Part shown: positions 1 through 11,406 of the stretch, one piece after another
How the letters are laid out: each line of letters opens with the position of its first letter
How positions within the stretch are numbered: the stretch's first letter is position 1
Source: a virus
Lineage: Duplodnaviria; Heunggongvirae; Uroviricota; Caudoviricetes
Length of the DNA stretch: 11,406 bases
IMG/VR virus record: IMGVR_UViG_2548877011_000002
Span: 1 to 11,406 of that record
Strand: one strand, 5' to 3'
The notes under the pieces: generated by a model
Told to the model about the DNA's origin: nothing
What the model saw: only the letters and a program-made list of their open reading frames with translations
Databases searched by the model: none
Translations under genes and position numbers: made by a program

Positions 1-9
1 ATTTGTCAT
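1..9 (-). CDS. First three codons of the gene downstream of cII on the minus strand, probably a replication (O-like) gene; runs off the left edge
   Basis: Minus-strand ATG (reverse complement of 7-9) preceded by AGGAG (reverse complement of 15-19); position after cII as in the lambdoid layout. Too short to identify. Confidence 0.25.
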
Positions 10-41
10 AATGACTCCTGTGGATTGATCCAGTAATTCCC

Positions 42-338
42 TCAGAATTGCATATCAATTTGCTTAGAGTCCCCGGCGGCCACCGGGGATTTTTTCTTTG
101 TGATTTCATCAAGCGCATACTTAAAAGCTCTGCTAATCGGACTGATGTCTGATGCCATGCCAAAAGCACACAAGACCGAAGCTATAAACCTCCAGTCTGT
201 TCTGCTTATCTTCGATTCATGACAGCCAATCATCTTTGCCAGACCGCGCTGGGTAAGCGTTGACAGGTTGATGAGTAAATCAGTTTCAGCGCGATCAATT
301 TCTCGCTGTGATAGTTTGCTGTAACTTGTTTGTTCCAT
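42..338 (-). CDS. cII: CII-like transcriptional activator (lysogeny establishment)
   Basis: 98-aa ORF. C-terminus ..KKKSPVAAGDSKQIDMQF resembles lambda CII ..KKRPAATERSEQIQMEF as recalled; central HTH-like segment (LAKMIGCHESKISR); lies after cro on the same strand. Confidence 0.7.
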   Translation of the reverse strand: MEQTSYSKLSQREIDRAETDLLINLSTLTQRGLAKMIGCHESKISRTDWRFIASVLCAFGMASDISPISRAFKYALDEITKKKSPVAAGDSKQIDMQF

Positions 339-349
339 TTCTTAAGATT
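316..349 (+). promoter_or_regulatory. Candidate pRE-type promoter with CII half-sites (TTGC-N6-TTGT) and TAAGAT -10, antisense to the cII 5' end
   Basis: TTGCtgtaacTTGT at 316-329 inside the first codons of cII, followed about 14 nt later by TAAGAT (344-349); geometry and the TAAGAT-TTCC stretch resemble lambda pRE as recalled. Confidence 0.35.
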
Positions 350-377
350 TCCAATAGTGAATAGCTAGTTGAAAGGT

Positions 378-393
378 ATGCGTGGAAACGCAT
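378..393 (-). repeat. Perfect 6-bp inverted repeat (hairpin) in the cro-cII intergenic region; possible tR1/nutR-associated structure
   Basis: ATGCGT-ggaa-ACGCAT read directly; no T-run follows, so it is not a classical intrinsic terminator. Confidence 0.3.
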
Positions 394-423
394 ATGGCCT
401 TAGTTGGTCAGATATATTGGGAC

Positions 424-438
424 TCGCTTTGTCAGCGA
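424..438 (-). promoter_or_regulatory. nutR boxB-like hairpin (GACAA loop)
   Basis: Minus-strand reading TCGCT-GACAA-AGCGA, the same loop and near-identical stem as the plus-strand hairpin at 3334-3348; lies just downstream of cro. A possible boxA-like CGCTATTTT is the reverse complement of 462-470. Confidence 0.5.
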
Positions 439-476
439 CGTAGGACGAATGTCCATTGTGAAAATAGCGGTGTTAC

Positions 477-710
477 TTATGCAGCCGATGCTCTACGCGA
501 TACGAACACTAGGTTTTCCTTTTTCACAGGTTTATAACCCGTGAAATTACGAGTAGCTTCTTCGATTGCATTCGCTTTATCAGGGGAAGCTCTTCGAAAT
601 CCATATGCAATCTGGTCAAGATAGCCAACTGAAGTTTTCGCTAATGCGGCGAGTCGCTTCCATTCCTCACTAGAAGCCTCTTTTCGCCAGCGTAGTAGTT
701 CATTACTCAT
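477..710 (-). CDS. cro: Cro-like HTH regulator (YdaS/Cro-type)
   Basis: 77-aa ORF divergent from cI across an operator-rich intergenic region; HTH-like core LAKTSVGYLDQIAYGFRRASPDKANAIEEATR resembles YdaS/Cro-type proteins. Confidence 0.6.
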   Translation of the reverse strand: MSNELLRWRKEASSEEWKRLAALAKTSVGYLDQIAYGFRRASPDKANAIEEATRNFTGYKPVKKENLVFVSRRASAA

Positions 711-823
711 TAGTGCCTCCGTTTATCACACAGAACAACTTTACCATTTTGATAAATCATCCGCAATGTAAATTTATCATATTGCGTATTTATCCATTTG
801 CTAAATAGAGGGAAAATTGTGAG
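711..823. promoter_or_regulatory. oR region with divergent pR/pRM promoters and repeated operator motif
   Basis: Divergent cI/cro intergenic region containing TTTATCA at 722-728 and 773-779, TTTATCC at 789-795, and the inverted form GATAAA at 751-756; the 10-mer AATTTATCAT at 771-780 recurs in oL. Confidence 0.6.
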
Positions 824-1528
824 ATGGAAAACAAAGATATTCGCAAATCGAATCTGGCGTTTTTGCTAGATGAGCATAAAAAAATCGCGGGTAACACTAA
901 TGCAAGCTTTGCCGATAAGCTTGGGGTTAGCCCTTCTCAACTCACGCAAGTCTCCGGTGAAAAAAGCACTCGAAACATAGGGGATAAACTAGCAAGAAAA
1001 TTTGAAGCCGCGCTTGGGTTACCTAATGGGTGGCTTGATTTGGTACATGATGTAACACCAATTGCATCATGCTCAGATTCTTTAACTTTTGTCGGTCAGG
1101 TAAGAAAAGGGTTAGTGCGCGTGGTTGGTGAGGCAATTCTTGGTGTTGATGGTGCCATCGAGATGACCGAAGAGCGCGATGGGTGGCTCAAAATTTATAG
1201 CGATGATCCAGATGCCTTTGGTCTTCGTGTGAAAGGAGACAGCATGTGGCCCAGAATAAAATCAGGAGAATATGTACTCATTGAGCCTAACACCAAAGTA
1301 TTCCCGGGTGATGAGGTGTTTGTCAGAACTGTTGAAGGACACAACATGATCAAAGTTCTTGGCTATGACAGAGACGGAGAATACCAATTTACAAGCATCA
1401 ACCAGGACCACAGGCCAATAACGTTGCCTTATCATCAAGTAGCAAAGGTGGAGTATGTGGCTGGTATTCTGAAGCAATCTCGCCATCTGGATGACATCGA
1501 GGCAAGGGAGTGGCTGAAAAGTTCGTGA
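824..1528 (+). CDS. cI: CI-type prophage repressor (N-terminal HTH, C-terminal S24/LexA-like autopeptidase domain)
   Basis: 234-aa ORF; N-terminal HTH-like region (FADKLGVSPSQLTQV); C-terminal domain with a GDSMWP serine motif and a downstream lysine (MIKVLG) typical of LexA/CI self-cleaving repressors; divergent from cro. Confidence 0.9.
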   Translation: MENKDIRKSNLAFLLDEHKKIAGNTNASFADKLGVSPSQLTQVSGEKSTRNIGDKLARKFEAALGLPNGWLDLVHDVTPIASCSDSLTFVGQVRKGLVRVVGEAILGVDGAIEMTEERDGWLKIYSDDPDAFGLRVKGDSMWPRIKSGEYVLIEPNTKVFPGDEVFVRTVEGHNMIKVLGYDRDGEYQFTSINQDHRPITLPYHQVAKVEYVAGILKQSRHLDDIEAREWLKSS

Positions 1529-1610
1529 CTTCATCGTCACATAGCTGGTAACCAGTGGCCTGAAGAGACGTTTGGGTGATGTACATAGCATTTCTGGATA
1601 AAAATACAGA

Positions 1611-1652
1611 TTCCCTTTATGGGAAATGAATCTATAATTCCCAAAAAGGGAA
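1611..1652 (+). promoter_or_regulatory. Candidate promoter/operator for the toxin-antitoxin-chaperone cassette
   Basis: Two palindromes TTCCC-N5-GGGAA (1611-1625 and 1638-1652) flank a perfect TATAAT at 1633-1638; the toxin ATG is at 1665. Confidence 0.45.
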
Positions 1653-1664
1653 CAAAATCGGATT

Positions 1665-1952
1665 ATGAAGGTCTTAAACGTAGAGAAGCTTCACAGTTTT
1701 AGCCGGAAGCACAATCAGGCCAAGGGGGCTTTAGACTCTTGGTATGATGAAGTGATAAGAGAAAACTGGAAAACGACTCAAGACATACGGAATAGATTTA
1801 ATTCTGCCGACTTCCTTCCTAACAACAGGGTAATTTTTAATATAAAAGGCAATAACTATCGGCTCGTTGTCCAAGTTGTTTACCAGGCAGGAATGGTCAT
1901 AGTTGAAAGAGTTGGAACTCATGCAGAGTACGACAAGTGGAGGCTTAAATGA
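1665..1952 (+). CDS. higB: HigB-type toxin (RelE/ParE-fold mRNA interferase family)
   Basis: 95-aa ORF; C-terminal half FNIKGNNYRLVVQVVYQAGMVIVERVGTHAEYDKW parallels E. coli HigB (YgjN) ..FNVGGNELRVVAMVFF..CYIREVMTHKEYD as recalled; 4-nt ATGA overlap with the next ORF. Confidence 0.8.
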   Translation: MKVLNVEKLHSFSRKHNQAKGALDSWYDEVIRENWKTTQDIRNRFNSADFLPNNRVIFNIKGNNYRLVVQVVYQAGMVIVERVGTHAEYDKWRLK

Positions 1953-2605
1953 ATCGAACTAGCTGGCGCATCATTAAAAATAGTGAAGAGCATGCTGCAG
2001 CTATGGAAAGGCTCATTGAACTTGCGTCTAGTGATTTACAACCTGGAACTGAAGATTTTGATGAGTTTGAACTACTAGGCTTGCTTATCGAGCACTATGA
2101 GTCACGCGAGTTCCCTATGGACAAGCCAGATCCCATAGAAGCAATCAAGTTCCGTATGGATCAACAAGGCCTCTCTTATGCCGATATGAAACAATACATT
2201 GGCTCAGCATCTAAAGTATCTGAGGTCTTAAATCGTAAGCGTCCATTAAGTCTTTCAATGATCCGTAGACTACATGACGGACTTGGAATTCCTGCAGATA
2301 TCTTAATTCAAGATATGAGCGCAATTGAATGGAGCCTAGTTGACGCAGAGGAAGAAGAAACAGCCATGACTAGCGTCATTGCTCGGTGTGAGTCAGCCGT
2401 CACATCACCTTCTGCTTATTTCGCTGAAAAGGCTACAGAATCTTACTTTTCAAAAATGTTGTTCAGCGCAGTAAGGGGTAATGGCAAATGCAAAGAAAAA
2501 CGGAATGTTTTTTCTTTGATAAGTAACTTGTCATCAAGTTTCACAGCGGCTAGCAACCTGAATGACGAAATGACTTCTGACGGAAATTACTTATTATTAC
2601 CATGA
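1949..2605 (+). CDS. higA: HigA-type HTH antitoxin with a ~90-aa C-terminal extension (candidate chaperone-addiction region)
   Basis: 218-aa ORF; residues ~60-125 (PIEAIKFRMDQQGLSYADMKQYIGSASKVSEVLNRKRPLSLSMIRRLHDGLGIPADILI) parallel the E. coli HigA (YgjM) HTH region as recalled; it then continues ~90 aa beyond where HigA normally ends, Ser/Ala-rich; ATGA overlaps with both neighbours. Confidence 0.75.
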   Translation: MNRTSWRIIKNSEEHAAAMERLIELASSDLQPGTEDFDEFELLGLLIEHYESREFPMDKPDPIEAIKFRMDQQGLSYADMKQYIGSASKVSEVLNRKRPLSLSMIRRLHDGLGIPADILIQDMSAIEWSLVDAEEEETAMTSVIARCESAVTSPSAYFAEKATESYFSKMLFSAVRGNGKCKEKRNVFSLISNLSSSFTAASNLNDEMTSDGNYLLLP

Positions 2606-3006
2606 AAATTGAACTCATTAGCAAAAAAGTTGAACGCTTGGTTATGACACGGCTAGAAGGCGATTCAACAGCAAAAAAAGCCATAAAAACAACCGTTAAT
2701 CTAAATAATGAACTTTACACTAATGTGAAGGATTCAAAGCTATTTAGAGTGAGATATTTTGCCTCCGTAACTATTGAAGGCAGGCTTGAGATGGACATCA
2801 CATACGACTTTGACTTCCGGTCAGAAGATGATTTTTCTCATGAAATGGCAAAATCATATGAGGTAAGGTCCATTGCTCCCAATATGGCATATCCCTATAT
2901 AAAAACATATGCCGAGCAAATTATCCTCATGTCAAACCTTGGTAGGTTCACTCTGCCTTATTTTGATTTCTTGGCCAATCCCATGGAAACGAACAGTAAT
3001 AAGTGA
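2602..3006 (+). CDS. SecB-like chaperone (third component of the cassette)
   Basis: 134-aa ORF translationally coupled to the antitoxin; C-terminal PNMAYPYIKTYAEQIILMSNLGRF..LPYFDF resembles the SecB segment [28 protein letters not shown] as recalled. The similarity is remote and by eye only. Confidence 0.6.
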   Translation: MKIELISKKVERLVMTRLEGDSTAKKAIKTTVNLNNELYTNVKDSKLFRVRYFASVTIEGRLEMDITYDFDFRSEDDFSHEMAKSYEVRSIAPNMAYPYIKTYAEQIILMSNLGRFTLPYFDFLANPMETNSNK

Positions 3007-3014
3007 AATTCCCC

Positions 3015-3040
3015 ACCCGGCCTCAGCGCCGGGTTTTCTT
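3015..3040 (+). terminator. Intrinsic terminator closing the cI/cassette transcription unit
   Basis: ACCCGGC-ctcagc-GCCGGGT stem-loop followed by TTTCTTT, 9 nt after the stop codon of the chaperone ORF. Confidence 0.7.
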
Positions 3041-3144
3041 TGCCTCACGATCCCCACACCTAAAAACACATAACCAATTGTATTTGTTGAAAAATAAATA
3101 GATACAACTTGCTAAACAACGCAATCCAGATCTCCCTCAAATCT

Positions 3145-3265
3145 CTTTATTTATCCTGTCGAATTCCTACAACAAAATAAAACACCATAAGAATCAATAC
3201 GATATTTGAAAACCAAGAGAATTTATCATTTTGCTATTGCCATTAATTTATCATTCCGATAAAGT
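3145..3265 (+). promoter_or_regulatory. oL/pL region: repeated operator motif and candidate pL promoter
   Basis: AATTTATCATT at 3220-3230 and 3245-3255, TTTATCC at 3150-3156, GATAAA at 3258-3263; candidate -35 TTGCCA (3237-3242) and -10 TAAAGT (3260-3265) with 17-nt spacing, reading toward N. Confidence 0.5.
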
Positions 3266-3333
3266 TCACCCATCAGCAGGACGCACTACTCACCAGGGCG
3301 GTGAATATACAACGATTCGAATATGAATCTACG

Positions 3334-3348
3334 GCGCTGACAAAGCGC
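3334..3348 (+). promoter_or_regulatory. nutL boxB hairpin (P22-type, GACAA loop)
   Basis: GCGCT-GACAA-AGCGC matches the P22-type boxB as recalled; lies between pL and N. Confidence 0.6.
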
Positions 3349-3477
3349 AATAACCAAAGTGAACTTTGGGGTGAATGCAGAAGCTAACCTTCTCGGCGGA
3401 GGCGCTTTGCAATGATTACGCGACCGGAGTTAGTCGCCCGGCTGTATTCACCGCCAAAGTTCATCAGGAGGTTCCAT

Positions 3478-3861
3478 ATGACACGCAGAACTCAGTTCAA
3501 AGGCAATTCTCGTTCTCGTCGTCGTGAGCGTTTAAAGGCAAAGGCATTAGCTAACGGCGTACTGGCCCGCGAAGAAGCAATAAGTTCAGAAGTATTACAC
3601 CGCCCAACTCTAAGTAGAGCGCAGATTCAGGCTAAAGGTACTCACGAAACGCCTGATCGCATAGAAGACGCTAAGCCAATTAAGTTCATGGCACAGGACG
3701 TGATCTGGCAGCAGGAAGAATACAGACGCAATCTGGAGCGAGCGGCCATTGTGTACGCGAATGAGTTTGGACATAAGCAACCAGAAACTGGTGTATGTCT
3801 TCCAAATGTAGCTCTTTACGCGGCAGGCTACCGGAAATCCAAACAACTGACAGCAAGATGA
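3478..3861 (+). CDS. N: N-type transcription antiterminator (P22 gp24-like)
   Basis: Arginine-rich N-terminus (MTRRTQFKGNSRSRRRERLKAK); C-terminus ..VALYAAGYRKSKQLTAR close to P22 N ..VALYAAGHRKSKQITAR as recalled; AGGAGG at 3466-3471 before the ATG at 3478. The track start at 3412 is in frame but lacks an RBS. Confidence 0.8.
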   Translation: MTRRTQFKGNSRSRRRERLKAKALANGVLAREEAISSEVLHRPTLSRAQIQAKGTHETPDRIEDAKPIKFMAQDVIWQQEEYRRNLERAAIVYANEFGHKQPETGVCLPNVALYAAGYRKSKQLTAR

Positions 3862-3919
3862 CTTGTGTTGGTCGCCAGAAAATGAAATTAGGCAGCAAAC
3901 CACTTATTTGAGGTGATAT

Positions 3920-4390
3920 ATGACAAAATCATGGAGCGTACCTTTTCCTGAATCAGAAACTGAACATGATGGAATGCCTGTTTTCTGGAGATTCCAGGCG
4001 ACAGTTGAAGAAGATGGGATAAAAATATTCGCACTTCAATATATAGCTTTTCATCAGACAGAGCATTATGCATGGTTGGTTCCTGCGCATTGGATTGTTA
4101 ATTTTAAACCAGCACCAAATCAGTGGTTACAGGAATGGAAACAAAGGAGAAATAGATATGCAATTAAGAAAGTAGCAAAAAATGCAGAAAGATCTTTTGC
4201 ATTCCCAACGAAGAAACTTGCCATTGAAAGTTTATTGCGCCGGAAGAAATACCATTTAATGAGAATCAAACAAGATTTGGCTGTTGTATCAACTCTTGTT
4301 GATGGTATGAAGAATATTGATACATCAACACCAGATATTGAATATAACTTTGGACACAACCAAGAAACAGAAAATTGGGTATTTTATTAG
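3920..4390 (+). CDS. Hypothetical protein (156 aa) in an AT-rich island between N and ea10
   Basis: Complete ORF with GAGGTGA before the ATG; no family recognised; visibly AT-richer than its neighbours; followed by an inverted repeat and an intrinsic terminator. Confidence 0.5.
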   Translation: MTKSWSVPFPESETEHDGMPVFWRFQATVEEDGIKIFALQYIAFHQTEHYAWLVPAHWIVNFKPAPNQWLQEWKQRRNRYAIKKVAKNAERSFAFPTKKLAIESLLRRKKYHLMRIKQDLAVVSTLVDGMKNIDTSTPDIEYNFGHNQETENWVFY

Positions 4391-4404
4391 TACGAATAAG
4401 CACT

Positions 4405-4432
4405 GTGTATTCATTCCAACGAGTGAATACAC
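4405..4432. repeat. 9-bp perfect inverted repeat GTGTATTCA-N10-TGAATACAC
   Basis: Read directly from the sequence; sits between the 156-aa ORF and the terminator; could be a protein-binding site or RNA hairpin. Confidence 0.5.
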
Positions 4433-4494
4433 GGAGCAATGTCGCTCGTAACTAAACAGGAGCCGACTTGTTCTGATTATTGGAAATCTTCTTT

Positions 4495-4520
4495 GCCCTC
4501 CAATGTGAGGGCGATTTTTT
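4495..4520 (+). terminator. Intrinsic terminator
   Basis: GCCCTC-caatgt-GAGGGC followed by GATTTTTT. Confidence 0.7.
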
Positions 4521-4540
4521 ATCTGTGAGGATATGAACAG

Positions 4541-4909
4541 ATGTCAAACATCAAAAAATACATCATTGATTACGACTGGAAAGCATCAATAGAAATTGAA
4601 ATCGACCATGACGTAATGACAGAGGAAAAACTTCACCAGATTAATAATTTCTGGTCAGACTCTGAATACCGACTCAATAAACACGGCTCTGTATTAAATG
4701 CTGTATTAATCATGCTGGCGCAACATGCTCTGCTTATAGCAATTTCAAGCGACTTAAATGCATATGGTGTTGTGTGTGAGTTCGACTGGAATGATGGAAA
4801 TGGTCAGGAAGGATGGCCTCCAATGGATGGTAGCGAAGGAATAAGAATTACCGATATCGATACATCAGGAATATTTGATTCAGATGATATGACTATCAAG
4901 GCCGCCTGA
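4541..4909 (+). CDS. ea10: Ea10-like protein (lambda ea10 position, upstream of cIII)
   Basis: 122-aa ORF, the same length and position as lambda ea10 and with a sequence I believe matches it; GAGGA RBS upstream. Identity is from memory only. Confidence 0.55.
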   Translation: MSNIKKYIIDYDWKASIEIEIDHDVMTEEKLHQINNFWSDSEYRLNKHGSVLNAVLIMLAQHALLIAISSDLNAYGVVCEFDWNDGNGQEGWPPMDGSEGIRITDIDTSGIFDSDDMTIKAA

Positions 4910-4981
4910 GTGCGGCTTTACCGCATACCAATAACGCTTCACTCGAGGCGTTTTTCGTTATGTATAAATAAGGAGCACACC

Positions 4982-5146
4982 ATGCAATATGCCATTGCAG
5001 GGTGGCCTGTTGCTGGCTGCCCTTCCGAATCTTTACTTGAACGAATCACCCGTAAATTACGTGACGGATGGAAACGCCTTATCGACATACTTAATCAGCC
5101 AGGAGTCCCAAAGAATGGATCAAACACTTATGGCTATCCAGACTAA
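4982..5146 (+). CDS. cIII: CIII (FtsH inhibitor that protects CII)
   Basis: 54-aa product [54 protein letters not shown] matches lambda CIII as recalled; AAGGAG at 4970-4975. The track's GTG start at 4910 is an upstream in-frame extension. Confidence 0.85.
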   Translation: MQYAIAGWPVAGCPSESLLERITRKLRDGWKRLIDILNQPGVPKNGSNTYGYPD

Positions 5147-5258
5147 ATTCACTATCGCCACTTTTATTGGCGATGAAAAGATGTTTCGTGAAGCCGTCGA
5201 CGCTTATAAAAAATGGATATTAATGCTGAAACTGAGATCAAGCAAAAGCATTCACTAA
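5115..5258 (+). CDS. kil: Kil (host cell-division inhibitor peptide)
   Basis: 47-aa product [47 protein letters not shown]; overlaps the cIII 3' end by 32 nt as in lambda; AGGAG at 5101-5105. Confidence 0.75.
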
Positions 5259-5333
5259 CCCCATTTCCTGTTTTCCTAATCAGCCTGGCATTTCGCGGGC
5301 GATATTTTCACAGCCATTTTCAGGAGTTCAGCC

Positions 5334-5630
5334 ATGAACGCTTATTACATTCAGGATCGTCTTGAGGCTCAGAGCTGGGCGCGTCACTACCAGCAGATCG
5401 CCCGTGAAGAGAAAGAGGCAGAACTGGCAGACGACATGGAAAAAGGCCTGCCCCAGCACCTGTTTGAATCGCTATGCATCGATCATTTGCAACGCCACGG
5501 GGCCAGCAAAAAAGCCATTACCCGTGCGTTTGATGACGATGTTGAGTTTCAGGAGCGCATGGCAGAACACATCCGGTACATGGTTGAAACCATTGCTCAC
5601 CACCAGGTTGATATTGATTCAGAGGTATAA
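5334..5630 (+). CDS. gam: Gam (RecBCD inhibitor), short 98-aa form
   Basis: Sequence [51 protein letters not shown].. essentially identical to lambda GamS as recalled. Confidence 0.9.
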
Positions 5631-5635
5631 AACGG

Positions 5636-6421
5636 ATGAGTACAGCACTCGCAACGCTGGCTGGGAAGCTGGCTGAACGTGTCGGCATGGATTCTGTCGA
5701 CCCACAGGAACTGATCACCACTCTTCGCCAGACGGCATTTAAAGGCGATGCCAGCGATGCGCAGTTCATCGCATTGTTGATCGTCGCCAACCAGTACGGC
5801 CTTAATCCGTGGACGAAAGAAATTTACGCCTTCCCTGATAAGCAGAACGGCATCGTTCCGGTGGTGGGCGTTGATGGCTGGTCCCGCATCATCAATGAAA
5901 ACCAGCAGTTTGATGGCATGGACTTTGAGCAGGACAATGAATCCTGTACATGCCGGATTTACCGCAAGGACCGTAATCATCCGATCTGCGTTACCGAATG
6001 GATGGATGAATGCCGCCGCGAACCATTCAAAACCCGCGAAGGCAGAGAAATCACCGGACCGTGGCAGTCGCATCCCAAACGGATGTTACGGCATAAAGCC
6101 ATGATTCAGTGTGCCCGTCTGGCCTTCGGATTTGCTGGTATCTATGACAAGGATGAAGCCGAGCGCATTGTCGAAAATACCGCATACACTGCAGAACGTC
6201 AGCCGGAACGCGACATCACTCCGGTTAACAATGAAACCATGCAGGAGATTAACACTCTGCTGATCGCCCTGGATAAAACATGGGATGACGACTTATTGCC
6301 GCTCTGTTCCCAGATATTTCGCCGCGACATTCGCGCATCGTCAGAACTGACACAGGCCGAAGCAGTGAAAGCTCTTGGATTCCTGAAACAGAAAGCCACT
6401 GAGCAGAAGGTGGCAGCATGA
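5636..6421 (+). CDS. bet: Bet (Red-beta single-strand annealing protein)
   Basis: 261-aa product near-identical to lambda Bet as recalled ([37 protein letters not shown]..). Confidence 0.95.
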
Positions 6422-7098
6422 CACCGGACATTATCCTGCAGCGTACCGGGATCGATGTGAGAGCTGTCGAACAGGGGGATGATGCATGGCACAAATTACG
6501 GCTCGGCGTCATCACCGCTTCAGAAGTTCACAACGTGATAGCAAAGCCCCGCTCAGGAAAGAAGTGGCCTGACATGAAAATGTCCTACTTCCACACCCTG
6601 CTTGCTGAGGTTTGCACCGGTGTGGCTCCGGAAGTTAACGCTAAGGCTCTGGCCTGGGGAAAACAGTACGAGAACGACGCCAGAACCCTCTTTGAGTTCA
6701 CTTCCGGCGTTAATGTTACTGAATCCCCGATCATCTATCGCGACGAAAGTATGCGCACCGCCTGCTCTCCCGATGGTTTATGCAGTGACGGTAACGGCCT
6801 TGAGCTGAAATGCCCGTTTACCTCCCGGGATTTCATGAAGTTCCGGCTCGGTGGTTTCGAGGCCATAAAATCGGCTTACATGGCCCAGGTGCAGTACAGC
6901 ATGTGGGTGACGCGAAAAGATGCCTGGTACTTTGCCAACTATGACCCGCGTATGAAGCGTGAAGGCCTGCATTATGTCGTGATTGAGCGGAATGAAAAGT
7001 ACATGGCGAATTTTGACGAGATGGTGCCGGAGTTCATCGAAAAAATGGACGAGGCACTGGCTGAAATTGGTTTTGTATTTGGGGAGCAATGGCGATGA
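6418..7098 (+). CDS. exo: Exo (Red-alpha 5'-3' exonuclease)
   Basis: 226-aa product near-identical to lambda Exo as recalled ([62 protein letters not shown]..); 4-nt overlap with bet. Confidence 0.95.
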
Positions 7099-7277
7099 AG
7101 CATCCTCACGATAATATCCGCGTAGGCACGATCACTTTCGTCTACTCCGTTACAAAGCGAGGCTGGGTATTTCCCGGCCTTTCTGTTATCCAAAATCCAC
7201 TGAAAGCCCAGCGGCTGGCTGAGGAGATAAATAATAAACGAGGGGCTGTATGCACAAAGCATCTCCTGTTGAGTTAA
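7089..7277 (+). CDS. Small hypothetical protein (lambda orf60a position)
   Basis: 62-aa ORF overlapping the exo stop; same position and size as lambda orf60a. Confidence 0.5.
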
Positions 7278-7441
7278 GAACGAGCATTGAGATGGCACAT
7301 AGCCTTGCTCAAATTGGAGTCAGGTTTGTGCCAATACCAGTAGAAACAGACGAAGAATTTCATACGTTAGCCGCATCCCTTTCACAAAAGCTGGAAATGA
7401 TGGTGGCGAAAGCAGAAGCAGATGAGAGAGACCAGGTATGA
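7250..7441 (+). CDS. Small hypothetical protein (lambda orf63 position)
   Basis: 63-aa ORF overlapping the upstream ORF as in lambda. Confidence 0.5.
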   Translation: MHKASPVELRTSIEMAHSLAQIGVRFVPIPVETDEEFHTLAASLSQKLEMMVAKAEADERDQV

Positions 7442-7521
7442 CAACCACTGAATGCATTTTTCTGGCAGCGGGCTTCATATTCTGTGTGCTTATGCTTGCC
7501 GACATGGGACTTGTTCAATGA
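7438..7521 (+). CDS. Candidate 27-aa hydrophobic peptide (single predicted TM helix)
   Basis: Own translation: MTTTECIFLAAGFIFCVLMLADMGLVQ. ATGA overlap with the upstream stop (7438-7441) and overlap of its stop with the next start (7518-7521). Below the ORF-track size cut-off. Confidence 0.3.
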   Translation: MTTTECIFLAAGFIFCVLMLADMGLVQ

Positions 7522-7733
7522 CACCTCAGCAAGAAAACGCCCTTCGCAGTATTGCCCGTCAGGCTAATTCTGAAATCAAAAAAGCCAGACAGCAGTTTCC
7601 GGATAAAAACGTCGATGACATTTGCCGTAGCGTACTGAAGAAGCACCGCGAAACGGTAACGCTGATGGGATTCACACCGACTCATTTAAGTCTGGCGATC
7701 GGCATGTTAAACGGCGTCTTTAAGGAGCGATGA
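7518..7733 (+). CDS. Small hypothetical protein (71 aa from the internal Met; possible orf61-position homologue)
   Basis: Track ORF 7452..7733; the start MTPQQENALRS.. at 7518 is translationally coupled to the upstream peptide and is preferred. Confidence 0.45.
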   Translation: MTPQQENALRSIARQANSEIKKARQQFPDKNVDDICRSVLKKHRETVTLMGFTPTHLSLAIGMLNGVFKER

Positions 7734-7754
7734 ACATGAAAAGCAAAATCATCA

Positions 7755-7777
7755 GGGAGCTACAGGCTCCTTTTTTA
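7755..7777 (+). terminator. Candidate intrinsic terminator
   Basis: GGGAGC-tacag-GCTCC stem-loop followed by TTTTTTATTATT. Confidence 0.45.
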
Positions 7778-7831
7778 TTATTCGCATTCACCCTCAAGCG
7801 TATTAACCAACAATTCAGGGATTAATGAAAG

Positions 7832-8053
7832 ATGGCGGACATCATTGATTCAGCATCAGAAATTGAAGAATTACAGCGCAATACAGCAATAAAAATGCGT
7901 CGTCTGAACTACCAGACTATATCCGCCACTCATTGTTGTGAGTGTGGCGATCCCATAGATGAACGAAGACGTCTGGCCGTTCAGGGTTGTCGGACTTGTG
8001 CAAGTTGCCAGGAAGATCTGGAGCTTATCAGTAAACAGAGAGGTTCGAAGTGA
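7832..8053 (+). CDS. TraR/DksA-family C4 zinc-finger protein
   Basis: 73-aa ORF with CxxC-N17-CxxC spacing (CCECGDPIDERRRLAVQGCRTCASC), typical of phage TraR-like proteins. Confidence 0.65.
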   Translation: MADIIDSASEIEELQRNTAIKMRRLNYQTISATHCCECGDPIDERRRLAVQGCRTCASCQEDLELISKQRGSK

Positions 8054-8688
8054 GCGAAATTAACTCTCAGGCACTGCGTGAAGCGGCAGAGCAGGCAATG
8101 CATGACGACTGGGGATTTGATGCGGACCTTTTCCATGAGCTGGTAACACCATCGATTGTGCTGGCGCTGCTGGATGAACGGGAAAGAAACCAGCAATACA
8201 TCAAACGCCGCGACCAGGAGAACGAGGATATTGCTCTTACGGTAGGGAAGCTGCGTGTTGAGCTGGAAGCAGCAGAGAACAACCTTATTGATAGTGAATG
8301 CCATGTTGCTGAACTGGAAGAAGCGCTACGCGATAAGCAGGCGTTACTTGAAGCCTCAGAAAAGCGCAACGCAAAATTACAAAGCGAGAATGCATACATC
8401 CGCAACCGGTACAAAGAACTGGACCTGTTAATCGGGAAAAACATTCTTGTCATGCAGGCTGCGATTATCGAATGGCAGGCAACTGGCGACGCTAAAAGCG
8501 GACTGGCATGGATTTATAACACACTGTTTGGCCCAGGCGAATTGCCGGACGAATCTGAGAAAGATGCTCAGGCCTACTTTAATCGCAAATATGCACCGAT
8601 TGACGAAAAGCTTATGGAGCTTCACAAGTGGTTTTGGGAACAAAGTGAAGCCGAGCGCGCCGCTGGCATTCGCATCAAAGGAGAGTGA
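8050..8688 (+). CDS. Ead/Ea22-like coiled-coil protein
   Basis: 212-aa ORF with GTG start overlapping the upstream stop; N-terminus MSEINSQALREAAEQA.. and a central heptad-rich region resemble Ead/Ea22-like prophage proteins; low certainty. Confidence 0.45.
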   Translation: MSEINSQALREAAEQAMHDDWGFDADLFHELVTPSIVLALLDERERNQQYIKRRDQENEDIALTVGKLRVELEAAENNLIDSECHVAELEEALRDKQALLEASEKRNAKLQSENAYIRNRYKELDLLIGKNILVMQAAIIEWQATGDAKSGLAWIYNTLFGPGELPDESEKDAQAYFNRKYAPIDEKLMELHKWFWEQSEAERAAGIRIKGE

Positions 8689-8689
8689 G

Positions 8690-9445
8690 ATGATTCACTA
8701 CCACGGTGGGCCTATTACTCCTGATACGTGCGCAATGAGAGCATGGAAAGGGCGACATGCGTTTATCAGTTTTGCGCATTCAGGCCAGATCAATCTCGCG
8801 GCTGAATACTGTCAGTCGTTCGCGCTGGACAACGGTGCATTCACCGCCTGGAAAGCAGCTGGCAAAAACAAAATCGACTGGAGCGATTACTACGAGTTTG
8901 TTGCTCGCTGGAAGAATCACCCAGGATTCGATTTTGCCATTATCCCGGATGTTATTGATGGCGGAGAGGAGGAAAATGATGCGCTTCTGAATGAGTGGCC
9001 TCACGGAAAACTAGCTGGCGTTCCAGTGTGGCACATGAATGAAAGTGACGAGCGATTTATTCATTTGTGCAATGAGTTTCCGCGAGTGGCTATCGGTAGT
9101 TGTGGCGACTATGACGTAAAGCGCCCAACTCTTGCGGTAGCCAGAATGAAAGACCTGATTCGTCACATTGTTGATGGGCATGGTCAGCCGGTTACGAAAC
9201 TACATGGATTGCGCATGTTAAATCCGCTGATATTCACAAAATTACCCTTAGCCAGCGCAGATAGTACGAACGTCGCTCGAAACATCGGTATTGATAAAGC
9301 CTGGTCTGGGGCTTATGCACCTGCAAGTAAAGAGACACGCGCAGCATTAATGGTAGAACGGATTGAGGCACACAATAGCCCTGGTTCTCTTGCGTATTGT
9401 GAACAACGCGACCGCTTTGAAATGCAATTGCAACTAGCACTTTAA
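8690..9445 (+). CDS. TGT-fold protein, candidate DpdA-like DNA transglycosylase (7-deazaguanine DNA modification)
   Basis: 251-aa product from the ATG at 8690 (AAAGGAGAG RBS; the track's 8447 start lies inside the upstream gene). Collinear motif resemblance to tRNA-guanine transglycosylase: FALDNGAF vs LTDSGGFQ, FDFAIIPDVIDG vs DIVMIFDECTPY, FPRVAIGSCGDY vs GFDGYAVGGLAVGE, LASADSTNV vs GIDMFDCV. By eye only. Confidence 0.4.
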   Translation: MIHYHGGPITPDTCAMRAWKGRHAFISFAHSGQINLAAEYCQSFALDNGAFTAWKAAGKNKIDWSDYYEFVARWKNHPGFDFAIIPDVIDGGEEENDALLNEWPHGKLAGVPVWHMNESDERFIHLCNEFPRVAIGSCGDYDVKRPTLAVARMKDLIRHIVDGHGQPVTKLHGLRMLNPLIFTKLPLASADSTNVARNIGIDKAWSGAYAPASKETRAALMVERIEAHNSPGSLAYCEQRDRFEMQLQLAL

Positions 9446-9455
9446 GGACTAACAA

Positions 9456-10286
9456 ATGACCACTATTACCAAAGAACGTATTGAATTGTTCATTAAAAAT
9501 CCGCTTGAAAACGGGCTTACTCGTGGCGAACAAATGGAACTGGCACGAATTGCACTGGCATCACTGGAACGCGAACTGATTCGCCACGAGCATGCCAAAT
9601 GGTCTGACTCCACATTTGGCTGCGTTGGCCCCATTGGTCCACTGAAACACCTCTCAAAAGAGGCTCTGGAAGCCGCAGCCGAACCAGACGATCTCAGCGA
9701 GTGGGCTGATATGCATTTCCTGTTGTGGGATGCACAGCGCCGTGCTGGCATCAGCGATGCTGAAATTACCGCTGCTATGGAAGATAAATTGAAGATCAAC
9801 ATGGAGCGCCAGTGGCCTGAACCAAAAGATGGTGAGCCTCGCTTGCACATTAAAGAACCCGGCAACTCTCCGGTAATTCCGGATGGTTTATCCACGGTAT
9901 GCGCTGAGGCTTATCAGGTTGTAGGAGTTATGGCAGATGCGCTTGGTGTATTCGGTGATGCAGCAGTACAGAAAGTTCTGGATAACCTGTCACAGCAAAA
10001 ACTTGTTCACAGAGATGTGCTGCCGTTCTCGCTTCCGGCAACTCCGGATGGTTGGATAAGCTGTAGTGAGCGAATGCCTGAAATGGGAGAGCGACAATGC
10101 TATGTGTTAGCAGCTGACTTTAAAAACAACTACCCACCAAACATCCCCAACACTCAGGTCGGCGTATATGGCGACTGGTTTAATGATGGCAAGCCCACTT
10201 GGGATGACGGTGATGGCGAAGACCTGTATCTCAAAGAGGTAACCCACTGGATGCAGCTACCAGAACCGCCGCAGGAGGTGAAATGA
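9456..10286 (+). CDS. DUF550 (dATP/dGTP pyrophosphohydrolase-like) plus DUF551 two-domain prophage protein
   Basis: 276-aa ORF; N-terminal region (HEHAKWSDSTFGCVGPIGPLKHLSKEALEAAAEPDDLSEWADMHFLLWDAQRRAGISDAEI) matches the recalled DUF550 pattern; C-terminal DGWISCSERMPE..VLAADF.. matches the DUF551 pattern. Confidence 0.55.
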   Translation: MTTITKERIELFIKNPLENGLTRGEQMELARIALASLERELIRHEHAKWSDSTFGCVGPIGPLKHLSKEALEAAAEPDDLSEWADMHFLLWDAQRRAGISDAEITAAMEDKLKINMERQWPEPKDGEPRLHIKEPGNSPVIPDGLSTVCAEAYQVVGVMADALGVFGDAAVQKVLDNLSQQKLVHRDVLPFSLPATPDGWISCSERMPEMGERQCYVLAADFKNNYPPNIPNTQVGVYGDWFNDGKPTWDDGDGEDLYLKEVTHWMQLPEPPQEVK

Positions 10287-10369
10287 TGAATTGGCCTGAA
10301 GCATTCACCGCAGTTGGAGTTGCAATAGCGGTGGCATTTATTCTGTATTCGCTTTTCCGCTGGGGATAA
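10283..10369 (+). CDS. Candidate 28-aa hydrophobic peptide (single predicted TM helix)
   Basis: Own translation: MMNWPEAFTAVGVAIAVAFILYSLFRWG. Start overlaps the upstream stop (ATGATG at 10283-10288); the next ORF starts 5 nt after its stop. Below the ORF-track cut-off. Confidence 0.3.
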   Translation: MMNWPEAFTAVGVAIAVAFILYSLFRWG

Positions 10370-10373
10370 AGGA

Positions 10374-10616
10374 ATGTTCGCTCTGATTCAACGTGGTCAG
10401 ATATACACGGACAGAGCCGGATACCCTGTGGTGATTACTCGCAGTACTCAGCACTCAGTGTTCTTTCGACGCATGGACGGGCGCTCCGGACGGGTACGCA
10501 TTGGTGAGTTCAACAACCTGTTCGAACATATTGACCAACAGGAGTACCGCAAAATTCTGGCGGGCACTGAGCAGGAAATGCGCCTGAAAAAATTACGCGC
10601 AATGCAACGGAGGTGA
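10374..10616 (+). CDS. Hypothetical small protein (80 aa; possibly DUF4222-like)
   Basis: Complete ORF with AAGGA before the ATG; family assignment uncertain. Confidence 0.45.
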   Translation: MFALIQRGQIYTDRAGYPVVITRSTQHSVFFRRMDGRSGRVRIGEFNNLFEHIDQQEYRKILAGTEQEMRLKKLRAMQRR

Positions 10617-10619
10617 TAC

Positions 10620-10754
10620 ATGCATACGGCTTTTGAGTTCTGGGTTCGCAAGACATTCGGCAATCGCTACGACCTGACCCGTGATGTCGACGGCTTCTAC
10701 TGCCGTGAAGTTGTGAAACGAATGTTTGACGTGTGGTTCCACTGCCGTGGATGA
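10620..10754 (+). CDS. Candidate 44-aa Cys/Trp-rich small protein
   Basis: Own translation: MHTAFEFWVRKTFGNRYDLTRDVDGFYCREVVKRMFDVWFHCRG. ATG 4 nt after the upstream stop, GGAGGTGA RBS within the upstream gene end. Confidence 0.35.
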   Translation: MHTAFEFWVRKTFGNRYDLTRDVDGFYCREVVKRMFDVWFHCRG

Positions 10755-10772
10755 AAGTTTTATGAGGTTGGC

Positions 10773-11027
10773 ATGCAGACAATCATCTATCAGATAACCC
10801 CCAGCAAATGGTGTACGGAGAGAGTCCTTATTGCATCAACAGGGCTAAAGCCCGGCACCATCGAGCGGGCCAGAAGAAAGTCATGGATGCAGGGAAAAGA
10901 ATACCGCCATTACGCTGTAGAAGGTGATCCTGGGCATTACAGTGAATGCCTGTACAACATCGAAGAAATTATGCGATGGATCGAAAACCAGAAACAACCA
11001 GGTGCCAAAAATGCAAGTTCCGGTTAA
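10773..11027 (+). CDS. xis: Excisionase-like protein
   Basis: 84-aa ORF immediately upstream of the integrase start and co-directional with it; basic, small, with a conserved-looking ITPSKWC segment seen in some prophage excisionases. Call is mainly positional. Confidence 0.5.
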   Translation: MQTIIYQITPSKWCTERVLIASTGLKPGTIERARRKSWMQGKEYRHYAVEGDPGHYSECLYNIEEIMRWIENQKQPGAKNASSG

Positions 11028-11060
11028 CCTGTTAATGCTCCTGGACGTCTGGGAGGTTTA

Positions 11061-11406
11061 ATGAGTAACGCATCATACCCGACAGGCGTTGAAAACCATG
11101 GAGGATCACTCCGTATATGGTTTCACTATAATGGCAAACGTGTCAGAGAAAACCTCGGTGTTCCTGACACAGCCAAAAACCGGAAGATCGCTGGTGAACT
11201 TCGCACTTCCGTTTGTTTTGCAATCAGAATGGGGAGTTTCGACTACGCCGCGCAGTTCCCTAATTCCCCTAACCTGAAACACTTTGGTCTGGGAAAAAGA
11301 GAGATAACCGTTAAGGCACTTTCGGAAAAATGGTTGGACCTTAAGAAAATTGAGATTTGTGCGAATGCACTTAACCGTTACCAGTCAGTAATTAAAAACA
11401 TGTTAC
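11061..11406 (+). CDS. int: Tyrosine integrase, N-terminal (arm-binding) part; 3' end beyond the window
   Basis: Own translation from the ATG at 11061 (GGGAGG at 11051-11056): MSNASYPTGVENHGGSLRIWFHYNGKRVRENLGVPDTAKNRKIAGELRTSVCFAIRMGSFDYAAQFPNSPNLKHFG.., resembling N-terminal domains of prophage integrases. Absent from the ORF track because no stop lies in the window. Confidence 0.6.
   Translation, partial: MSNASYPTGVENHGGSLRIWFHYNGKRVRENLGVPDTAKNRKIAGELRTSVCFAIRMGSFDYAAQFPNSPNLKHFGLGKREITVKALSEKWLDLKKIEICANALNRYQSVIKNML

Follow-up and report, generated by a model that had tools for sequence, protein, structure and literature searches.

A lambdoid prophage carries in its rexAB slot a cassette nearly identical to the HigBAC toxin-antitoxin-chaperone system

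HigBAC of Escherichia coli NT1F31 is the closest described relative of the locus reported here. It is a toxin-antitoxin-chaperone (TAC) anti-phage system residing in the rexAB slot (Mets et al., 2024; bioRxiv 10.1101/2024.02.24.581848). For the NT1F31 allele, it was demonstrated that HigBA without HigC is toxic and that HigC rescues the cells, that deletion of the chaperone-addiction (ChAD) tail makes HigA independent of the chaperone, and that HigB specifically blocks protein synthesis. The operon gave protection from lambda-vir and from Bas25, and the trigger was the capture of the lambda tail tube protein gpV by HigC. HigC bound ChAD and gpV peptides via analogous aromatic patterns and gpV competed with ChAD; phage escape mutants carried gpV S54P, and co-expression of gpV resulted in toxicity (Mets et al., 2024). 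The published HigA has 218 amino acids, with ChAD at residues 122-218 and the key aromatics W128, F158, F188 and Y214, and the pocket residues of HigC are Y39, N41, R49 and D71 (Mets et al., 2024). In this study, we analysed a DNA stretch of 11,406 nucleotides from a virus of the Caudoviricetes (IMG/VR record IMGVR_UViG_2548877011_000002, positions 1 to 11,406; the whole stretch is called the window hereafter) and the three-gene cassette at its positions 1665-3006. Our results indicated, with a probability of about 0.9, that this cassette is HigBAC. The family was already known: the 2024 publication covers the system together with its slot, mechanism and trigger. According to the references of PMC12671086, the journal version is Cell Host Microbe 32:1059 (PMID 38821063).

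The comparison with the published operon carried this assignment. The NT1F31 genome (NZ_CP045190.1) was part of our E. coli collection, and its locus carried the exact accessions used by Mets et al. (2024). The cassette proteins were identical to those of NT1F31 in 444 of 447 residues, with 7 nucleotide differences over 288 + 657 + 405 nucleotides. Each protein contained one substitution (window to NT1F31): I31R in HigB (94/95 identical to WP_112844290.1), R185Q in HigA, within ChAD (217/218, WP_112844289.1), and A27T in HigC (133/134, WP_112844288.1). When the synthetic fragments and primers of Dataset S1 were mapped onto the window, 3 of the 681 coding positions that they cover differed. The similarity extended to the surroundings: window positions 2-3284 were 96.8% identical to the NT1F31 immunity region, and the adjoining repressor shared 233 of 234 amino acids with the cI beside NT1F31 HigBAC (S234L, window to NT1F31). 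The four aromatic residues of HigA sat exactly at the published positions and the four pocket residues of HigC were present, so all eight mapped residues were intact in the window proteins; N41, R49 and D71 were also invariant in the family alignment. Chance is of no concern here, given that the three proteins share 99% of their residues with an operon already characterised by experiment. Accession identity, the eight mapped residues and the location in the rexAB slot behind the cI of a lambdoid prophage were thus all found as in HigBAC.

The cassette consists of three plus-strand open reading frames (ORFs) in the ORF list of the window, 1665-1952 (95 amino acids), 1949-2605 (218 amino acids) and 2602-3006 (134 amino acids). 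ATGA was present at both junctions and each start codon overlaps the preceding stop. A preliminary description of the window, made from its letters alone, had reported these three co-directional ORFs with ATGA overlaps, and both the coordinates and the junction sequences agreed. The linked genes are ordered toxin-antitoxin-chaperone, and this order and the coupling were kept in five other loci. ORF1, proposed in that description as a YgjN-type HigB toxin, matched Pfam HigB_toxin (PF09907) over its whole length and above the gathering score (E = 4.5e-30), together with the E. coli K-12 HigB (YgjN) structures 5ycl/5ifg in PDB (E = 1e-4); it is thus a member of one of the established families of type II toxins. 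ORF2 had been described as a HigA helix-turn-helix (HTH) protein with a long C-terminal tail, and the searches bore this out. Residues 53-119 matched the solved HigA (YgjM; PDB 5ycl_A/5ifg_B) and residues 67-118 gave a weak HTH_3 match in Pfam, while the remaining ~100 residues beyond residue ~119, including the tail at 122-218, had no match in family or structure sequence searches. A canonical antitoxin domain is therefore followed by a C-terminal extension, the ChAD. Its anchors W128, F158 and Y214 were kept in other genera and the rest of the HigA tail diverges.

For ORF3, a SecB-like C-terminal motif had been claimed. The motif itself was undetectable by Pfam, in which the SecB family PF02556 gave no match at E <= 1, and sequence searches of Pfam, NCBIfam and PDB returned nothing meaningful. 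However, ORF3 matched the PADLOC profile PD-T4-9_C (CmdC, the chaperone of CmdTAC) over its full length (E = 3.2e-11). Twenty homologues with 50-88% identity to ORF3, all from Enterobacterales, were aligned for structure prediction. The AlphaFold2 model (predicted local distance difference test 86.9, predicted template modelling score 0.80) contained four strands and then a long helix. A comparison of folds had been set beforehand as the refuting test of the SecB-like reading, and the SecB fold was present: the top Foldseek match in PDB was Mycobacterium tuberculosis Rv1957 with a ChAD peptide (5mtw; E = 5e-7, template modelling (TM) score 0.73-0.75), followed by SecB of E. coli and Haemophilus influenzae (1qyn, 1fx3, 1ozb; TM 0.65-0.77). 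Sequence identity in these structural alignments was just 12-17%. On the basis of the model, ORF3 is predicted to be a SecB-fold, SecB-like protein but not the housekeeping SecB, because it had no PF02556 match, no PDB sequence match and such a low identity. With HigB, HigA plus ChAD, a third protein of modelled SecB fold and near-identity to NT1F31 HigBAC, the TAC reading of the preliminary description was right. Its statement that a TAC chaperone can be captured by a phage structural protein was also correct, and was published for HigBAC itself.

The cassette was located between cI and oL/pL, as had been stated earlier, with an S24 repressor upstream and operators and the N gene downstream (Table 1). 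It replaces rexAB exactly from the end of cI to the rexB terminator, which bears out the claimed rexAB-slot location. At the left side, 25 nt past the stop of the resident cI, begins a 28-nt relic, which blastn against lambda aligned with the last 27 nt of cI (96% identity, alignment of 28 nt); the relic marks an old recombination joint at the left border of the cargo slot. At the right side, lambda homology restarts exactly at window position 3015, directly past the rexB stop, with 89% identity over 120 nt (3015-3134), a segment that forms a conserved right-hand junction for exchangeable exclusion cargo. Since the cI relic ends at 1580 and lambda homology restarts at 3015, the cargo spans about 1581-3014, a clean rexAB replacement. 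The intrinsic terminator attributed earlier to the cassette does exist as a strong hairpin with a T-run at 3015-3034 (-13.7 kcal/mol, z = -2.96). However, it is not the cassette's own: by its homology it belongs to the lambdoid phage backbone, being also found 3' of lambda rexB. This 45-nt terminator stretch was the sole part of the query common to ~760 further E. coli genomes. These partial matches were rejected as a wider cassette family, as they share only the backbone terminator. The minus-strand ORFs 1731-1922 and 2550-2684, which overlap the cassette, were treated as chance ORFs. Outside the cargo, the operator-like motif AATTTATCAT was present on the oR side, between cro and cI (745-785), and twice on the oL side (3220-3230, 3245-3255), and the consensus scan placed a pL-like promoter site at 3237-3265.

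Table 1. Coordinates of the cassette, its putative control elements and its neighbours in the window, and of gpV genes in other sequences (L numbers)
Feature	Position	Strand	Remarks
higB, RelE-fold ribosome-dependent mRNA interferase toxin, 95 aa	1665-1952	+	PF09907, PD-Lambda-2_A, PDB HigB
N-terminal part of higA (aa 1-121) with toxin-neutralising region and Xre-type HTH	1949-2311	+	HTH_3, PDB HigA
higA C-terminal ChAD tail, aa 122-218 (97 residues), and stop codon	2312-2605	+	
higC, SecB-fold TAC chaperone and phage sensor, 134 aa	2602-3006	+	PD-T4-9_C, model fold
TATAAT, putative -10 hexamer of the cassette's own promoter	1633-1638	+	perfect consensus
Distal palindrome TTCCCTTTATGGGAA, putative HigA operator	1611-1625	.	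over the -35 position
Proximal palindrome TTCCCAAAAAGGGAA, putative HigA operator	1638-1652	.	overlaps the -10 and the probable start of transcription
Intrinsic terminator, 7-bp GC-rich stem and T-run	3015-3044	+	right border of slot; terminator scan
Relic of lambda-type cI 3' end, encodes QWPEETFG-stop	1553-1580	+	left edge of cargo slot
cI-type prophage repressor	824-1528	+	Peptidase_S24 (E = 3.8e-16) and weak HTH_3
cro-like gene	477-710	-	upstream side, divergent
cII gene	42-338	-	upstream side, divergent
oL operators and pL-like promoter	3220-3266	+	AATTTATCATT at 3220-3230 and 3245-3255; occurs between cro and cI as well
N antiterminator gene	3478-3861	+	downstream neighbour
Lambda-type gpV genes	L015 34468-35208; L017 14259-14999; L018 15588-16328; L019 16136-16876	-	

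The upstream regions were compared in six loci, namely the window and those of Klebsiella, Citrobacter, Serratia, Pantoea and one further enterobacterium. TATAAT lies 32 nt before the higB ATG, and the same distance was found in 6/6 loci from 5 genera. The 150-bp upstream segment cloned with the operon by Mets et al. (2024) includes this hexamer. Of the promoter claimed in the preliminary description, the perfect hexamer stood, but a full sigma-70 promoter was not called at 1633-1638 by the consensus scan and the -35 was weak. Only two matches to TTCCC-N5-GGGAA were present in the window (0.38 expected), and they bracket or overlap TATAAT. The proximal palindrome was at -27 in all six loci, with invariant arms and a variable spacer; the distal one kept its position at -54 in five of six, with invariant arms and variable spacer and flanks. 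As the arms are invariant and the positions fixed across genera while spacers and flanks vary, we read the palindromes as probable operators of the HTH antitoxin HigA. Operators or autoregulation of HigBAC were not mentioned in the preprint (Mets et al., 2024). The terminator scan found no plus-strand terminator between cI and higB, and therefore the cassette may possibly also be expressed by read-through from the cI transcript. A GGAGG Shine-Dalgarno sequence precedes higA and none precedes higC, which is presumably translated by way of the ATGA coupling. Within higA, a promoter-like site just ahead of higC (2570-2597) was dismissed; it sits in the non-conserved last higA codons, and promoter-like sites in the region were at chance level (5 found, 6.5 expected).

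The HigB-HigA-HigC architecture with its start/stop overlaps was kept in Klebsiella, Citrobacter, Pantoea, Serratia and one further enterobacterium. A profile scan of species-representative genomes with the HigC alignment returned one locus; such genomes rarely carry accessory higC, and the contexts were gathered from the encoding contigs. In the Klebsiella, Citrobacter and Pantoea prophages the architecture lies downstream of S24 repressors. The Serratia homologue (L004/L005, 4055-5405) had no adjoining cI and was found between a gene for a DUF927 primase-like protein and genes for P22-type ejection proteins; with this copy in another context, the cassette therefore moves between different prophage slots. 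The complete cassette was present in 88 of 5,426 complete E. coli genomes, 84 of them with the window allele, which was also found on at least 1000 contigs. It occurred in 30 phage records. The 25 best-ranked were all Shiga toxin (Stx)-converting phages, comprising 21 Stx1a phages, BP-4795, Stx2a_WGPS9 and two records of the Stx2 phage from strain 86-24. The whole window was 99.9% identical to a prophage of E. coli strain 13E0725, which has stxA1a/stxB1a ~7.5 kb past the cII end of the window. The carrier of the window is a Stx1a-converting lambdoid prophage. Stx was never mentioned in the preprint (Mets et al., 2024), and a literature search on HigB, SecB-like proteins and Stx prophages together found nothing relevant.

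The carriers also differ in their tail genes. The 13E0725 prophage has a siphovirus tail module. Its major tail subunit (WP_001275508.1; L012, 24998-25714) bears only a remote relation to gpV, with a BLASTP match of E = 0.002 across 25 residues, and contains neither the pair of DW[S/T] motifs nor the acidic loop. In BP-4795 (L016), tblastn found no gpV match. Judged from these sequences, neither phage would be likely to trigger the HigBAC that it carries. The late region of the NT1F31 prophage, in contrast, is lambda-type, with a V protein identical to lambda gpV in 239 of 246 residues. Its N-terminal domain is identical to that of lambda except for S23N, with W36, S54, D61-D64 and W67 intact. 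All four complete genomes with NT1F31-identical HigBAC encode a lambda-type gpV in the same prophage (239-243/246 identical to lambda), and the determinants of HigC recognition, W36, S54, DDED61-64 and W67, were intact in each. Among the complete late regions compared, a lambda-type gpV was thus present in 4 of 4 with the NT1F31-type allele, against 0 of 2 for the window type. The three carriers other than NT1F31 came from different countries; the DNA-binding domain of their cI was another one, and their early regions differed in part. Co-residence of sensor and trigger was not discussed in the preprint (Mets et al., 2024). We tentatively suggest, as a possibility that we hold to be rather doubtful, that HigBAC in nature acts on the prophage which carries it: NT1F31-type prophages would either abort or curb their lytic growth or have a self-tolerance, through the timing or strength of expression or a counter-measure encoded by the phage, and the Stx1a prophage of the window would represent the conflict-free solution. 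If this is true, a Stx phage with an unrelated tail tube protein could exclude lambda-tailed competitors in Stx-producing E. coli.

Two observations on these carriers are added. The cI beside HigBAC in 10034940-2, 15.03CC and J6 (L017, 35000-35707) has another N-terminal DNA-binding domain than the cI of the window, and its C-terminal half, from about residue 100, is nearly identical. The differing N-terminal and near-identical C-terminal halves imply that recombination took place within cI and that HigBAC travels together with the C-terminal half. In all four NT1F31-type prophages, the gene after pL (L014, 7746-8215, and its equivalents in L017-L019) is annotated as a frameshifted ORF, which is followed by a short N of 90 aa. 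Either a quirk in how this N type is annotated or a common defect that affects induction could account for it.

Combining the published mechanism with the elements found here, HigBAC in the window would operate as follows. The lysogen would transcribe the operon from its own promoter, probably autoregulated via the two palindromes flanking the -10, with read-through from cI possibly adding to it, and the three genes would be translationally coupled. HigA would neutralise the HigB toxin, but its 97-residue aggregation-prone ChAD tail would make it useless unless a HigC tetramer holds ChAD through its regularly spaced aromatic residues. When a phage with lambda-type gpV infects, nascent gpV may present a similar aromatic pattern (W36, W67 and the acidic loop) and compete with ChAD for HigC. 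HigA would then be lost, and HigB would shut down translation and restrict phage production.

Some points weigh against this interpretation. The published defence assays were run from the constitutive Ptet on a multicopy plasmid (Mets et al., 2024), and they therefore show defence at that expression rather than at the native single-copy level. The window allele is not exactly the tested one, as it carries the three substitutions given above, and the exchange at HigA residue 185 is three residues before F188, in an aggregation-prone patch. The lack of a SecB family match in ORF3 belongs here too. We infer that the window allele behaves like the tested NT1F31 allele. A TAC whose trigger specificity was shifted or lost, which gives no protection against lambda-type phages or senses something else, would fit the three differences, one in ChAD near F188 and one in HigC, and also the fact that the window-type allele rides Stx prophages of another tail type than the NT1F31-type carriers. 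However, no substitution touches a mapped residue; HigB position 31 is naturally variable among homologues (I/K/S/V), HigC A27 falls within the variable 18-29 loop, the least confident loop of the model, and the allele is intact and common. We regard such a shift as quite improbable.

It is slightly less improbable, though still unlikely, that the cassette is chiefly a module for prophage maintenance or addiction, or serves to regulate how its own prophage enters and runs the lytic cycle, with exclusion as a secondary effect. HigBA was first described for plasmid stabilisation (introduction of Mets et al., 2024), and the four prophages which hold HigBAC together with a trigger-intact lambda-type gpV may use it on their own lytic cycle. 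Such a role is opposed by the published direct evidence of defence and of escape by gpV mutation, by the location of the cassette in the classical slot for exclusion cargo, and by the prophage of the window itself, in which no gpV homologue was detectable. The strongest PADLOC matches of the cassette were to PD-Lambda-2, with E = 2.5e-42 for ORF1 (PD-Lambda-2_A) and E = 3.8e-50 for ORF2 (PD-Lambda-2_B), but the latter covered only profile positions 3-125 of 402. Domain searches found no peptidase domain in ORF2, and ORF3 matched the CmdC chaperone profile and not the P4-antitoxin-like third component. Membership in PD-Lambda-2 was refuted by the domain architecture of ORF2 and by the fold and profile match of ORF3, and we give a PD-Lambda-2-type system hardly any chance. 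HigBAC is retained as the identity of the cassette.

The main use of this result is annotation, and it carries little weight as a discovery. RefSeq labels HigC as 'hypothetical protein' and HigA as 'helix-turn-helix domain-containing protein', all three proteins are of unknown function in PHROGs v4, and in PADLOC 2.0 the hits of the operon are divided over PD-Lambda-2 and PD-T4-9 profiles, so that calls could be missed or wrong. Because the labels of RefSeq, PHROGs, Pfam and PADLOC fall short, the cassette has gone unrecognised in 88 genomes and many Stx1a/Stx2 phages. Beyond the published system, our analysis adds this annotation gap, a probable autoregulated promoter, the association with Stx phages and the self-trigger question: a system validated for the exclusion of lambda-tailed phages resides in a Shiga-toxin prophage, and other carriers hold both sensor and trigger.

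Some other genes of the window were also recorded. The 156-aa ORF at 3920-4390 (+), directly after N, belongs to phrog_1636 (E = 3e-112), a well-populated phage family of unknown function, and occupies another variable position of the early-left operon. Rfam Lambda_thermo, the cIII thermoregulator, was found at 4969-5027 (+) with 88.5 bits and overlaps the start of the cIII gene. The 251-aa ORF at 8690-9445 (+) had no Pfam match and matched PHROG 887 'queuine tRNA-ribosyltransferase' (E = 2e-103); this DpdA-like protein suggests that the early-left operon of the Stx1a prophage has a DNA modification of the 7-deazaguanine type or retains a relic of one.

Compared with the known systems, the cassette agrees with NT1F31 HigBAC in its genes with their lengths and overlaps, in its upstream region and terminator, and in its slot between cI and pL. 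Apart from the three substitutions, the difference lies in the carriers, a Stx1a prophage with a non-lambda tail tube for the window and prophages with a lambda-type late region and a trigger-competent gpV for the NT1F31 type. The TAC of M. tuberculosis, Rv1955-Rv1957 (HigB1-HigA1-SecB-like chaperone), has all three component types and an antitoxin with ChAD, and Rv1957 was the best structural match of ORF3, but the identity of the chaperones is just 16-17%. Moreover, the ChAD of HigBAC is more than twice as long, its inactivation is independent of ClpXP (Mets et al., 2024), and HigBAC is prophage-borne and phage-triggered, unlike the mycobacterial system. CmdTAC (PD-T4-9) is likewise a three-gene TAC defence system (Vassallo et al., 2022, 2024) with a chaperone related at the profile level. 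A hybrid has been published in which the chaperones of CmdTAC and HigBAC could replace one another as sensors (PMC12671086). However, the CmdTAC toxin is the mRNA ADP-ribosyltransferase CmdT and the system targets T-even phages, whereas the toxin of the cassette is HigB; membership in CmdTAC was rejected, as ORF1 had no PD-T4-9_A match and the chaperone alone is related. PD-Lambda-2 (Vassallo et al., 2022) has a related HigB toxin and HigA N-terminal domain and also protects against lambda-vir, but its antitoxin ends in a peptidase instead of ChAD and its third gene is P4-antitoxin-like, not SecB-like. Lambda RexAB occupies the same position, from cI to the terminator before oL/pL, and is also exclusion cargo expressed in the lysogen. 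It has no sequence similarity to the cassette, and the two have in common only what flanks them, namely the terminator and the cI 3' relic.

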